Assembly (NCBI GenBank): GCA_963787445.1
Contig: CAWBCT010000005.1
Span: 17,800 to 49,799, forward strand
Direction: 5' to 3'
DNA: 32,000 nucleotides
Source: an uncultured archaeon
GTDB taxonomy: Archaea; Micrarchaeota; Micrarchaeia; Micrarchaeales; CABMGC01
The position numbers and the translations under genes are program-made. The notes beneath the pieces were generated by a model, which was not told the origin of the DNA, ran no database searches, and was given only the letters and a program-made list of their open reading frames with translations. Below, piece by piece: positions 18,061 to 24,000 of this stretch (position 1 is its first letter; every line of letters begins with the position of its first letter).

Positions 18061-21000
18061 CTACCCCAGCAATGCGCTGAGCTGGGCGCCCGACAGCGCG
18101 GCGAACTGGGCGCTGGTGAAGGCGGCGACCTGATCGGCGCTGAGCTCGAGAATCCCGTGGCTGCCCAGCGCCGGGATTTGCGCGGTGGTCAGCCCGGCGA
18201 TGCCCAAGAGCGACAGCCCGAACAGCTGGCCCGCGGTGAGCGCGGCGATGCCGGTGGTGGTGAGCGCCGCCACCTGGCTCGATGCGAATGCGCCGAGCTG
18301 GTCGGGCGTCAGGCCGCCGAGCTGCGCCGTGTTGAGCACCACGATGTCGGCGGAATCGAAGCCGCCGAGCTGGGTTGCGGTCAGCGCGCCGAGCTGGGTG
18401 GCGGTCAGGCCACCGATCTGCACCGTGCTCAGCGCCGCCAGCTGCCCGCTGGTCAGCGCCACGATCGCGCCGGTGGAGAGCGACCCGAGTCCCGGTGGTG
18501 GACAGGCTGCGCAGTTGCACGGTGCTGAGCGCGCCGATGGCGGCGCTCGACAGCGCGTCGAGATTGGCGGTGCCCAGCGCGCCCAGCACGGTGGTCGAGA
18601 GTCCGGCGATCTGCGTCGTGGTCAGCGCCGCGGCATCGGTGGTGGGCAGACCGGCCAACGCGACCGCTCCCATTGCGGCGAGCTGCGCCGCGGTCAGCGA
18701 CCGGATCTGCGTGACCGTGAAGGCATCGAGGTTGGTGGCACCCAGCCCGTGAATGGCGGCACCGTTGAACGCGGCGAGCTGGGTGACGGTCAGCGCCGCC
18801 GCCTCGGCCGGGGTCAGCGCCGCCAGCAGGTAGACCGGCACGCTGAGCAGCTGCACCGGGGTCAGCCCGCCCACCTGGGTGGCGCTGAACGCGTCGAGGT
18901 TGGTGGTGCCCAGCGACGACAAGGCGGTGTAGGCCAGCCCGCCGATCTGTGTTGGTGTCAGCCCGCTTACCTGTGTCGTGGAGAGGCCGAGCAGTTCGGT
19001 GGCGGTCAGGCCGCCCAGCTCGGCGCTGCTCAAGCCGCCGATCTGCGTCGCGGACAGGCTTTCGATATAGGTGCTGCCCAGGGCGGCCAGCACCGTGCTG
19101 GTCAGCCCGGCGATCTGCGTACTGGTGAAGGAGCCGACCTGCGTGGTGGTCAACGCGCCCAACAGTCCGGCGGGGAGATCGTCGAGTTGCGTCGTGGTGA
19201 AAGCCTCGATCTGCGCCGTGGTCAGGAGTTGCAGATTGGTGCTGGTGAGCGCGTTCAGCACCGTGGTGGCCAAAGCGCCGATCTCGGTCGCCGACAGGGA
19301 CTGGAGATTGGTGACCGAGAGCCCGTTGAGCTGGGCCGGGCTCAGCGCGCGGATCTGCGTGGCGGTCAGCGCCGCGATTTCGCCGGTGCCGAACTGGTTG
19401 AGGATCGAGGCGCCGAAGCCCGCCAGTTGCGTGGTGGTCAGGCCGATGACCTGGACCGGCGTCAACGCGCCCAGTGCGGTGGAACTCAGCGCCGCGTAGT
19501 CGGTGGCGGTGAGGTCGAACAGTTGGGTCGAGGTCAGTCCGCCGACCTGGGTGACGGTGAGCGCCGCGATCGCGGTGGCCGACAGCGCATCGAAGGCCGT
19601 GGTGGCCAGCGCGCCGATCGCGGTCGAGGCGAGGCCGGCGAGTTGCGTGGTCGTCAGGCCGGCGGCCTGCGTCGCGTTCAGTACCGCGATATCGGTGGTG
19701 GCGAAGGCGTTGAGCTGCGTGGTCGAGAACGCGTCGAGCCGGGTGGTCGTCAGCGCGGCCAGGTCCGAGGTGGTGAAAGCCTCGATCAGGGTGAGGCTGA
19801 GCCCGGCGATCTGCGTGGTCGTCAGCGCGGCAATGTCGGTGGTGCCGAGCGCGACGAAGGCGGCGGTGCCGAGCGCATCGATGGCGGTGGTCGACAAGGC
19901 CGCGAATTGCGTTGTCGTCAGCCCATGCAACTGGGTGACCGTGAGCGCGCCGAATTCGCCGGTGGTCAGCGCGTTGAGCGTGGCGGAAGCGAAGCCGGTG
20001 AGCTGCGCCGGCGTCAGGGCGCCCACCTGCGCGGTCGACAGACTGGCCAGTTCGGCGGTGCCGAGCGCATTGATGTCGGTGGTGGTCCAGGCGGCGAGTT
20101 CGGTCGTGGTCAGGCCGGCAACCTGCGTGGTGGTCAGGCTCGCCGCGGCGCCGGTGCTCAGCGCGTCGAGCACCGATATGGTGAGGCCGCCGATCTGGCT
20201 TGAGGTCAGGTCGGCGATCTGCGTCGCCGTCAGCGTCGCCGCGTCGGCGGTCGTCAGCGCGTCGAGTTGGGTGGTCGCCAGGGCGCCGATCTGGCTCGAA
20301 CTCAGCCCGGCGAACTCACTCGTGGTCAGCGCCGCGATATCGCTGGTGCCGAAGGTGGCGAAGGCGGTGGTGCTCAGGCCGCCGAGCTGGGCGGCCGAGA
20401 GCGCGCGAATCTGGCCGGTGGACAGCGCCGCGATGTCGCTGGTGCTCAACGCATCGAGCGCCGTGGTGCCGAGCCCGGCCAGCTGCGTCGTCGCCAGCGC
20501 CTGCACCTGCGCGGTGGTCAATTCGCCGATCTCGCCCGTCGTCAGGGCGTTGAGTGTGGTGGTGGCGAGACCGCCGAGCTGCACCGTGGTGAGCGCGGTG
20601 AGCTGGGTCGCCGACAGCGCGTCGAGGGCGGCGGTGGACAGCAAATTGAGCGCGGTGGTCGAGACGCCGGTGAGCTGCGTGGTCGTCACGCCCGCGATCT
20701 GCGTCGCCGTCAGCGCCGCCAGGTCGGTCGTGGTCAGCGCCTTGAAATCGGTGGTGGAGAGCCCGGCGAATTGCGTCGAGACCAGGCCGCTCAATTGCGC
20801 GGTGGTCAGCGACGCGATGTCGGTGGTGGAGAGCGCGTTGAGGCCGGTGGTGGACAGCGCGGCGAGCTGCGTCGCGGTCAGGCCGGCGAGCTGGCCGGTG
20901 GTCAGCGCGGCCAGCGCCGAGGTCGTGAGCGCAACGACGAAGCCGGTGGCGAGCGCGCCCAACTGCGTCGAGCCCAGGCCGCGCAACTGCGTGGTCGTCA

Positions 21001-24000
21001 GCGCGGCGATGTCGCCCGTGGCCAGGGCATCGAGCTCGGTGGCGGCGAGGCCGCCCAGCTGCGCCGAGGTCAGGGCCCGCGCCTGGGTGGTGGTCAGCGC
21101 GGCGAAAGCGGTGGTGGCAAGCGCGCCCAGCGCCGAGCCGGCCAGCCCGCCGATCTGGTCGGTGGTCAGCCCGGCGACCTGGCTTGTCGTCAGGCCGGAA
21201 ATCTCGGTGGTGGTCAGGTCGTCGAAGGCGGTGGTGGTCAGCCCGCCGATCTGCGTCGAGGACAGGCCGGCGACTTCGGTGGTGCTCAGCAGCCCGATCT
21301 CGGTCGCGGTCAGGCCGCCGATCTGCGTCGCCGAGAGGGCGGCGATGCCGGTGCCGCCCAGCGCGGCGAAGTCGGTGGTGGCGAGGCCGCCGATCTGCGT
21401 CGCCCGCAGGCCGCCGATCTGCGTGGTCGTCAACGCGGCGATATCGGTGGTGCTGAGTTCGTCGAGAAATGTGAGGGTGAGGCCGCCGATCTGCGTTGTC
21501 GTCAGCCCGCCGATCTGCGTGGTGGTGAGAATCGCGACATCGTCGGAGGTGAAACCGTTGAGCGCGGCGACGGTGAGGGCGGCAACGTCGCCCGGCGACA
21601 GGGCGACGACCTCGGTCGTGGTCAGCGCCAAATTGGATAGCGTCGTGGTCAGGTTGGTGAACTGGACGTTGGTGATTCCGATCAACGTGTCGGTGCCGCC
21701 GAACGACGGGCTGTCGGCGGTCACGGTGTACGTGCCGCCGCCGTCGTTCATGATCGTGTAGTCGTCGGACGCGGCGGCGAGCAGCACGGTATCGGTGCCG
21801 CCGCCGCCGGTGATCGTGTCGGTCCCGCTTCCGGCAACGACGAACAGATCGTTGCCGGAGCCTCCGGTGAGCACGTCGTCGCCGTCGTTGCCGACCAAGG
21901 TCATCGCGCCGGTGGTCAGGCTGGCATCGATGCGATCGACGGTGGTTCCGTAATCGATGAACAGTTGGTTGGCGGTCAGGATGTCGGTGTTCTGACTGCC
22001 CAGCCAGCTCCAATGACCCGGCCGCAGATCGATATAGCCCGCACCCGACCAGTTCCCCGCCGAGATCATGTCGGTGGTGCTGCCCACGCCGTAGATCAGA
22101 TTGTTGGTGCCGGTGGTGCCGGGCGTGGCGGCGGGATTGAAGGTCCAGGTATGGGTGGGGGCGACGAAATCGGGGTTGGGACCGTAGAGATATTGCGCCA
22201 GCGCGATGTCCCACACGCCGAGCGTGGTCAGGTACGGCGTCGAGTAGGACATGACGGTGAGGGTGCTGGTGTCCTCGCCGCCGCCCTGGTTCTGGACATC
22301 GCCGGGAAATTGGTCGGCGGTGTCGCCATTGCCGGACTCGCCGCCGAGGCCCAGCACATGGCCGACCTCGTGGACGAAGACGCGAAGATTATCGTTGGAA
22401 GGGTCGGTGTTGCTGAGATAGACGTCGCCTTCTTCCTGGAGGAATGAGCCGGACTGTCCGGGGTAGGGGACATAGGAATAGCCGGCGGAGTTGGCGCCCT
22501 GATTGTTTTCACCAAAGCGCACCGGCACCGAATTGCTGTCGGTGGAAGATACGAAGACGATATCGGCAACCGCCGACCATTCCGCGAGCGCCTGCACCGC
22601 GGCGGATTCCGCGTTATTGAGTGTCGGGTCGGCGGCCAGAAGCTGGCTTGGCGTCAAGCCGGTAAGACCGCCGGTCAAGTCGGGGCCGAGGGTGCCGAAT
22701 CCGCTACGGTCGCTGCCGGGACCCGTGCTTCCATAAGTCGGAAACGCTTGCATGAAACTGAAATCGATCGTCTCGGCGGTGCCGAGCGCGCCGATATTGC
22801 TTGTCCCCGTGGTCTGCCAATGCGGTACCGGACTGAACAGCAGATCGGACATGAAATAGGGCATGGGCGCGGCCAACCCAAAGGACGGGTTGATCACCTC
22901 ATTGGTATCGACGTAATGGATCGTCGCCGTCGGCGATGCGCCGAGCAGATTGTTGCCGTCCGGCACCTTGAAACCGTCGACCGCGACATTGATGGTGAAA
23001 TGCGAAATACTGTCGTCGCCGACATAGATGGCATCGGCGGCATTGGTGACCGTTACGATCACCGAACTCCAGGGCGATACGGTTAGCCCACTGGTATTGT
23101 AGTTGGACAGATCTAGCTCGTCGGCGCTAGCGCCAGCGGCTTGGTCAAGCACTAGGGTCCCACCCGAGATACTGGTCAGTTCGATATCGTTGGAACCCGT
23201 CCCCACCGAGATGGTGAGATTGCCGATACTGTCGTCCGCACTCGGCCCATAGAGGATATTGGTGCCATTGCCGAGCGTGATGTTGTCGCCGCTGGCGCCG
23301 TTGTTAAGATAGATCGTGTTGTTGCCATTGCCGGCGATCAGCGTGTCATTGCTGAGCAGGGTGACGGTGTTGTTGCCGTTGCCGAGCGAAACGAAATCGT
23401 TGGTCGCGCCGGTTCCGACATAGTTGACCGTGTTGTTGCCGTCGCCGGCGCGCAGCGTGTCGAAGCTGACGAGGGTGATGGTATTGTTGCCGCCGCCCAG
23501 CGAAATCACATCATGACTGGCGGCGCCGGCTGACGCCTGGACGATATTGACGCCGCCGAGTGCGAACAGGGTATCCGACGTCGTGAGGAGGACGGTGTTG
23601 TGACCGGTACCGAGCGAGACAACGTCGTTGGCTCCGCCGTCGCTGACGTTGTTATTGCCGTTGCCCAGCGTTACATGGTCGTTCGTGGTGCTTAGATAAA
23701 TCTGAACGTAATTGCTACCGTCGCCGGCCGTCAGCGAGTTGCCGGAATTTAGGTATATGCTGAAGGCGCCGCTGCCGAGTTCGTAGAGGACGTCGCTACT
23801 CTGTTCGACAATGTAATCGCTGCCCGAGCCGCCAAGAACTGAATCTCCCGCGTACGGATAGATTGTATTGTTTAATCCGCTGCCAAGATTGATTGTAGTA
23901 TCGCTTGGACCACCGTTGCTGTAGCCGTAGATAATTAGATCGTTTGTGTTGGGCACATTGATGGTGTCGCCCGGCTCGCCGGGAAAAATCGTCAGACCAT

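Follow-up and report, generated by a model that had tools for sequence, protein, structure and literature searches.

What can a run of about 150 eight-residue units, following each other in one unbroken register, contribute to a single protein? This question is raised by a gene on the minus strand (18061..24016) of a 32,000-nucleotide (nt) stretch of DNA assigned to an uncultured archaeon of the Micrarchaeota (assembly GCA_963787445.1, contig CAWBCT010000005.1, positions 17,800 to 49,799 of the forward strand), hereafter the window, whose own numbering is used throughout. The gene encodes a protein of 1,984 amino acids (aa) with an ATG start (MAVITDG..., window 24016), the window copy being interrupted by a 1-nt insertion, and the protein is composed from the N- to the C-terminus of Gly/Asn-rich repeats, a serralysin-like metzincin, RTX repeats and the octad array. 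The array constitutes the C-terminal 1,196 aa (aa 789-1984) and thus about 60% of the protein. It represents an extreme case within ALTTAQ, a known repeat family yet to be characterised by experiment, whose probable fold class has lately been described from designs, and we consider it probable, at roughly 0.6, that the long array is a helical-screw rod which acts as stalk or spacer of a type I-secreted serralysin-like protein.

The array (18064..21652, minus strand) is segmented into 148 in-register octads plus partial ends, 149.5 octads in total, and starting at LTTTEVVA the register is kept strictly, without insertion or deletion, across all 148. The initial annotation, which was made from the sequence alone, had described about 150 phase-perfect octads over exactly these coordinates. 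The octad consensus is [A/G]-L-[T/S]-T-T-Q-[L/I]-[A/G]. Most constant are the two apolar positions, with L/F at position 1 in 143 of 149 units (96%) and L/I/V/F at position 6 in 141 (95%), followed by T/S at position 2 (109/149, 73%) and Q/D/E at position 5 (102/149, 68%), while positions 3 and 4 are Thr in 77 and 85 units, respectively, and the end positions 7-8 are small and A/G-rich. Overall, the array is composed of about 30% Thr/Ser and is rich in Ala and Gly.

Above the octad there is a second order of repetition. Self-identity of the protein is 0.33-0.42 at all multiples of eight compared with 0.05-0.14 at other lags, and its peak of 0.42 at lag 32 indicates a four-unit super-repeat in the order of two Q-type units, one A-type unit ('TTALDA') and one D/E-type unit ('TTxD/EIAA'). 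This 32-aa super-repeat agrees with the 96- and 192-nt periods in the DNA: over the array, Tandem Repeats Finder detects periodicity at 24, 48, 72, 96 and 192 nt with 58-80% matches, and the clearest higher-order repeats are located at 20417..21105 (minus strand; Tandem Repeats Finder, lag-32 peak and QQxx pattern), where a period of 96 nt (32 aa, four octads) recurs in 7.2 copies with 66% matches and a period of 192 nt shows 76% matches. The super-repeat is weaker than the octad, as QQxx at a spacing of four holds through nine blocks in a row and loses its phase elsewhere.

The DNA itself is far less uniform than the register. None of the 24-nt units are identical, pairwise identity averages 55%, the longest exact internal repeat measures 22 nt and four different codons are used for the position-1 Leu, while the units agree with each other most at codon position 2 (identity 0.64) and least at codon position 3 (0.48). 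As the unit DNA has diverged in this codon-position pattern, the array is old, constrained at the protein level and easily assembled. The structural selection for a solenoid that the initial annotation had presumed behind the register is borne out by this codon-position bias and by the octad register being kept in the orthologs too.

Distinct from RTX, pentapeptide, hexapeptide, leucine-rich repeat (LRR), collagen and VCBS repeats, as had been proposed, the octads were at the same time held to belong to no named family, which does not stand: the Pfam family PF20080 (ALTTAQ repeat, ALTTAQ_rpt) matches the array in 39 stretches with 529.9 bits (E = 2.5e-163; gathering cut-off 26.4), an outcome which the initial annotation had itself named as grounds for refutation. 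A match to DUF4351 (42.8 bits, one stretch) was treated as repeat-driven and spurious. A family census, in which 1.84 billion cluster representatives were searched exhaustively with HMMER, yields 2,158 proteins at E<=1e-3, of which 666 also reach E<=1e-10 and 127 reach E<=1e-30, with giants of up to 4,525 aa. The relatives retrieved with the array all carry PF20080 and share with it the eight-residue register and the A-L-T-T-A/T-Q-hydrophobic-A unit, many of them with an 'ETxD' variant at the fourth or fifth unit. They are large, multi-domain, apparently extracellular bacterial proteins, in which the repeat is combined with subtilase with fn3, Calx-beta, Big_13, FG-GAP, peptidase C13 and calpain-like protease domains as well as with the NF038122 metalloprotease, DUF4347, DUF1217, FlgE/FlgD-like, RTX and EF-hand-like calcium modules. 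This set of partners would fit a generic extracellular spacer module.

With respect to length the array stands apart. Scored by a generic hydrophobic criterion, the array stays in register without interruption for 148 units compared with 104 units at most among the 305 relatives retrieved, and with a scoring matrix derived from the window's own units the comparison is 148 to about 106. The nearest orthologs (P0001-P0004), which share the architecture and show 41-50% identity outside the repeats, possess 13-45 octads, so that the array here is about four times longer, and therefore an approximately four-fold internal expansion has taken place here. The extreme C-terminus reads ...AAILG or ...AAIVG in the orthologs and ...SALLG here.

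Among the relatives, several further features were observed. Orthologs can occur as tandem paralogs, with P0003 located beside P0004 (L002 384-7008), while at L001 4612-16759 three large genes, which encode 663, 803 and 1,366 aa and are not matched by Pfam, lie around the ortholog. P0005-P0007 are relatives without an ALTTAQ tail. Most of the short ALTTAQ proteins in P0042-P0161, some annotated as 'heme utilization protein', carry the C-terminal domain PF26745, a region of which looks calcium-binding ('LDLNGDG...DGLLxxDRNxDGxIxDGxELFG').

Which fold do the octads adopt? For a 256-aa segment of the array, modelled by AlphaFold2 with a 58-row alignment of non-overlapping segments of the array and of the arrays of relatives, the predicted secondary structure consists of a helix of 5-6 residues every eight residues and of zero strands, at a predicted local distance difference test (pLDDT) of 94.9 and a predicted template modelling score (pTM) of 0.83. 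A profile of the natural family, built from this alignment and run against all sequences in the PDB, yields one outstanding match, the protein HeliScrew4 (9ZEM; E = 6e-28, gapless over 107 residues), which PF20080 recognises with 129.9 bits and which in BLASTP is 33-37% identical to the array, again gapless, over about 100 residues. Most likely, the array forms an alpha-helical screw solenoid and not a beta-roll. A significant match of the octad to a solved structure, the other ground for refutation named at the outset, thus exists as well, and the helical alternative, initially suggested by the capping-box look of T-x-x-Q, is favoured by the AlphaFold2 model and the similarity to HeliScrew4.

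The HeliScrew proteins, reported in December 2025, are 8-mer 'alpha-helical screws' in which short helices are wound tightly clockwise on an axis with 2.5-4 units per turn, and which possess two apolar core residues per unit, S/T/D/N N-caps and frequently Pro at N1 (bioRxiv 10.64898/2025.12.04.691947). The designs are folded, monomeric and crystallisable, and for HeliScrew4 a 2.2 Å crystal structure, which agrees with the prediction within 1.05-1.38 Å, and a helical circular dichroism (CD) spectrum have been obtained (bioRxiv 10.64898/2025.12.04.691947). Its unit ALTPEQIA has the same apolar positions as the octad of the array, an S/T N-cap, Q/E at N3 and one short helix per unit. In contrast to the array, HeliScrew4 is a designed protein (random-repeat predictions and Chroma) of only 15 units with Pro at N1 and a charged surface, whereas the array has Thr at N1 (Pro in only 8/149 units) and an uncharged Thr/Gln surface. 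The HeliScrew authors regard the fold as 'dark matter' with one PDB precedent (7QLR) and a natural family is unmentioned (bioRxiv 10.64898/2025.12.04.691947). The link between PF20080 and the HeliScrew fold was not found in the searchable literature and is the most interesting by-product of this analysis.

Among natural structures, the best analogue found by Foldseek against the PDB is mesothelin (7UED, 8CX3, 8CYH), with full-length chains at E = 9e-4 to 5e-3 and probabilities of 0.89-1.00 (best chains E of about 1e-3, 0.99-1.0). The match is weak, with template modelling (TM) scores of 0.23-0.41 (best chains 0.29-0.41) and root-mean-square deviations of 8-12 Å. Like the predicted array, mesothelin is a superhelix of many short capped helices; unlike the array, its repeats are irregular and longer, and it is a eukaryotic glycosylphosphatidylinositol-anchored protein without detectable sequence homology. 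The Pfam Mesothelin model also weakly matches HeliScrew4 and the family member P0164. When compared with the PDB, the HeliScrew4 sequence furthermore matches TAL-effector repeat proteins (E = 1e-12 to 1e-18) through the capped-helix motif 'LTPEQV(V)AIA'. Solenoids that are otherwise unrelated seem to have this motif of N-capped short helices in common.

Projected onto such a screw, each octad L-[T/S]-T-T-[Q/E/D]-[I/L/V]-[A/G]-[A/G] would form one very short alpha-helix, with the Thr/Ser at position 2 as N-cap and the Q/E/D three residues on closing the capping box, while two to three small residues (A/G) would connect each helix to the next. L1 and I/L/V6 would face inward to build up a continuous hydrophobic core as the mini-helices in succession wind round a central axis, and the four-unit super-period suggests, as far as it can be read from the sequence, about four octads per turn. 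As all contacts would be local, linking each mini-helix with its neighbours and with the adjacent turns on either side, only changes by whole octads, preferably by four octads, would be tolerated. The perfect register despite the divergence of the DNA would be explained by insertions and deletions other than octads breaking the core, and the 96- and 192-nt duplication units by the preference for whole-turn, that is four-octad, changes. The array appears to have grown by duplication of whole turns in blocks of 96 and 192 nt. For 148 units, a rough estimate of the rod length is 35-55 nm, if each turn of 2.5-4 units is assumed to rise by about 1 nm.

How the rod would be deployed depends on the remainder of the protein. 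The non-repeat half resembles serralysins (M10B: AprA 1KAP, PrtC 1K7G, serralysin 1SAT; Caulobacter SapA) in the succession of HExxH, an SxMSY-type Met-turn and an RTX block. Its metzincin core is located at 22244..22618 (minus strand), with HEVGH at 22358-22372 and the Met-turn TVMSY at 22244-22258, and scores 22.9 bits with Pfam Peptidase_M10 (cut-off 24) and E = 3.8e-14 with NCBIfam ProteaseSapA, a score far below the equivalog cut-off. An AlphaFold2 model of the protease and RTX part is of low confidence (pLDDT 54); the top 24 Foldseek matches of this model in the PDB are all serralysins (E = 3e-10 to 4e-7). The best matches in scans of genome contigs are general serralysin-like genes with 24-35% identity. 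Directly upstream of the array, the RTX calcium-binding nonapeptides (21779..21898, minus strand; aa 707-746, LVGNDGDDVLTGGSGNDLF...GGGGTDTVLL) are matched by HemolysinCabind with 37.1 bits (cut-off 23) and weakly by the NCBIfam RTX and Ca-repeat models. Unlike serralysins, the protein has its third zinc His replaced and possesses about 330 aa of extra N-terminal repeats and, after the RTX block, the 1,196-aa ALTTAQ array. The N-terminal Gly/Asn-rich region (23030..24016, minus strand; aa 1-329) is composed of units of about 20 residues (for example 'LGNGNNTVTLLSNDTLIAGNGNNTIYL', LGNGNNTVTL...) at a lower G+C of 0.57-0.62; neither Pfam nor NCBIfam yields a match for it, and it may fold as a beta-helix.

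Type I secretion is the classical export route of serralysins, by which RTX serralysins leave the cell C-terminus first. The protein shares with type I substrates the presence of RTX repeats and the absence of an N-terminal Sec signal, as its N-terminus MAVITDGLTIFPGEPGD, read directly, shows no basic/hydrophobic signal-like segment. Because it combines RTX and serralysin-like parts with the lack of a Sec signal, type I export is the most likely route, and a C-terminal stretch of about [AT]Q[YFL]xA[IL][LIFV]G, which is conserved in the orthologs, is a candidate secretion signal. Export would then proceed C-terminus first and the array would therefore exit first, presumably to fold progressively outside the cell and independently of calcium into one continuous stiff rod, which could serve as a stalk or spacer, perhaps also as a folding ratchet, for the protease-like head.

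A functional analogy, and only this, may exist to the extender regions of the giant RTX adhesins LapA, MpIBP and SiiE, where long, monotonous and rigid repeats project a domain. These extenders consist of calcium-stiffened bacterial Ig-like beta-sandwiches of about 100 residues, whereas the unit here has eight residues, is predicted to be helical and lacks calcium sites. No retention module was identified in the array protein. More tentative, and in our estimate less likely than not, is the wider proposition that the helical screw is a common natural bacterial building block, represented by the hundreds to thousands of ALTTAQ clusters, of which this gene would be the longest continuous example seen here, a calcium-free rod of tens of nanometres that emerges first as stalk or ratchet of a type I-secreted protein.

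With respect to significance, a design fold presented as nearly absent in nature resembles by sequence a large uncharacterised natural family. The natural arrays, up to ten times longer than the design, provide sequences for studies on the stability, stiffness and evolution of a minimal solenoid and suggest candidates for rigid nanorods with tunable length. ALTTAQ arrays are joined to many secreted proteases and adhesin-type modules, and the protein together with its shorter orthologs represents a natural length series.

Several observations weigh against a helical rod exported as part of a type I-secreted serralysin-like protein. The relative with a solved structure stems from design and not from the natural ALTTAQ proteins, and literature searches on the family retrieved no function, natural structure or experimental work. 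Neither 9ZEM nor 7QLR is among the Foldseek matches in the PDB, with 9ZEM maybe absent from the library copy searched. The phase of the four-unit super-repeat slips several times along the array, so that four fixed faces are impossible over its full length. On the side of export, genes for type I secretion (ABC transporter, membrane fusion protein, TolC) are found neither in the window nor beside the orthologs, and the position of the array between the RTX block and the C-terminus is atypical for serralysins. Finally, the metzincin motif at 22340-22372 (aa 549-559) is HEVGHVLGLGGE, in which the third zinc His of HExxHxxGxxH is changed to Gly. This replacement in HEVGHVLGLGGE is found in all close orthologs, P0002 having REVGH in addition, while the Met-turn TVMSY is kept. 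As the third zinc-binding His is missing, the head is possibly not an active protease and may either use another ligand or be inactive.

The main rival explanation accepts a solenoid and questions its passivity: the array could be a ligand-binding or adhesive surface, which recognises polysaccharide, mineral or ice via its Thr/Gln rows, or an LRR-like protein-binding solenoid. That the outward positions would be mostly Thr, Ser and Gln, that the 32-aa super-repeat implies chemically distinct faces along part of the rod, and that mesothelin, as the closest analogue found among natural folds, functions in adhesion are all in line with such a function. The family profile also hits LRR proteins of matching period (LRRTM, E = 9e-15) and Pfam LRR_EndoS reaches 41 bits in sum; these matches are explained by the Leu periodicity of 24 = 3 x 8, and with 0 individually significant Pfam stretches, no Asn ladder and no strands we rejected the array as an LRR. 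As the super-phase slips repeatedly, which argues against one long flat face, and the surface residues vary freely among family members, we regard a binding surface as unlikely and the stalk or spacer as the better description of the array.

Whether the array and its length exist as described is a question of its own, as the called open reading frame (ORF) that contains the array (17996..24028, minus strand, 2,010 codons) does not encode it to the end. In the uncorrected frame, the octads break off at 'LSTTG|TRVALH' and are followed by Arg/Pro-rich out-of-frame text, while in the +1 frame they resume ('LGSLSTGAIVALTSGQ...') up to the stop at 18061-18063. The called ORF is truncated because of a frameshift at 18491..18493, a homopolymer run with one extra base by frame analysis (CCC on the plus strand, GGG in the gene), and deletion of one G restores a single frame of 1,984 aa. 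The frameshift, together with the breakage of nearby genes (two frameshifts in TpsB, truncation of TpsA and cysS), could point to an assembly artefact or a decaying pseudogene with repeats that are not expressed as protein.

An independent assembly locus (L003) on the 2.09-Mb contig Ga0495309_0000003 of the Joint Genome Institute (JGI) metagenome 3300049215 speaks against both. It is 99.91% identical to window 15184-32000 over 16.8 kb, with 10 substitutions and five single-base homopolymer indels, has CC instead of CCC at 18491..18493 and carries the same array length in an intact gene of 1,984 aa, the sole difference from the corrected window protein being N93D. As a consequence, an assembly artefact, which the initial annotation had named as a possible refutation, can be discarded for both the length and the register of the array. 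The indels (16559, 17313, 18491, 30969 and 31657) disrupt TpsB at two sites, the array gene at one and, in addition, two genes for oligopeptide ABC ATPases; that all five concern single homopolymer bases is typical of read errors, and the pattern looks like long-read homopolymer error and not like biology, with the frameshift at 18491-18493 being most likely a read error in the window assembly. In addition, the units are too diverged for collapse or expansion, given a longest exact repeat of 22 nt, and the octad frame runs past the frameshift to the C-terminus conserved in the orthologs. Artefact or pseudogene is thus highly improbable. With regard to annotation, the octads are to be recorded as ALTTAQ repeat (PF20080) and the gene as encoding one 1,984-aa protein read through a single-base sequencing error.

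Even less probable is the proposal of the initial annotation that the octads are degenerate RTX nonapeptides which, without calcium, build a beta-roll or beta-solenoid of 16 or 24 residues per turn. True RTX repeats lie directly upstream, the unit can be written as G-G-L-T-x-T-Q-[IL] to resemble GGxGxDxUx, and the Thr-rich eight-residue periodicity recalls the octads of ice-nucleation proteins. Against this, AlphaFold2 predicts short helices only, one per octad and at high confidence, both the crystal structure and the CD spectrum of the sequence-related HeliScrew4 are helical, the octads lack a conserved calcium-binding Asp, and even at E<=1 neither HemolysinCabind nor the Pfam models of ice-nucleation proteins recognise the array. 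The RTX beta-roll (PF00353) shares with the array its presence in the same protein, the nature of a short-period solenoid of secreted proteins and possibly an analogous folding after export, but has a period of nine and the calcium-binding GGxGxD, where the array has a period of eight, a predicted helical structure and no such Asp; PF00353 matches aa 707-746 only. The ice-nucleation octads (PF00818, AGYGSTxT, with a 16-/48-residue order) were likewise rejected, in view of the lack of a Pfam match at E<=1, the super-period of 32 and the helical prediction.

Equally remote is a flexible, possibly O-glycosylated Thr-rich low-complexity linker without defined fold, as the Thr/Ser content and the abundance of Ala and Gly might suggest, considering that two apolar positions are kept at strict 5+3 spacing over 148 units and in hundreds of relatives, that the structure prediction is very confident and that the designed relatives are folded, monomeric and crystallisable.

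The genes next to the array gene form a two-partner secretion pair. Directly downstream, TpsB (POTRA_2 and ShlB; 16106-17915, minus strand; 583 aa, intact in L003) is followed by TpsA with a TPS domain (14090-15830, minus strand; 1,012 aa in L003). The array protein was considered as TpsA cargo of the adjacent TpsB and rejected, as it has neither TPS domain nor Sec signal, a separate TpsA is present and the orthologs occur without a TpsB neighbour; as the orthologs lack those neighbours, the adjacency is probably incidental. Antisense coding was rejected as well: the plus-strand ORFs 19503-21761, 18185-20203 and 20267-21640 have no Pfam match, and their G+C content at third codon positions (GC3) equals that of the sense frame because of geometry.

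Beyond these genes, the window appears to be a mosaic. Positions 1-12342 match contig L084 at 98.9%, with synteny stopping inside cysS/gltX, and 12342-14090 contains the 3' half of a frameshifted pyrC-like dihydroorotase gene, plsY and the 5' part of dprA. The junction at about 14090 adjoins the truncated TpsA (TPS-domain ORF 13512..15830). Both junctions, at about 12342 and about 14090 (minus strand), cut genes mid-way and represent either a chimeric assembly or a real rearrangement.

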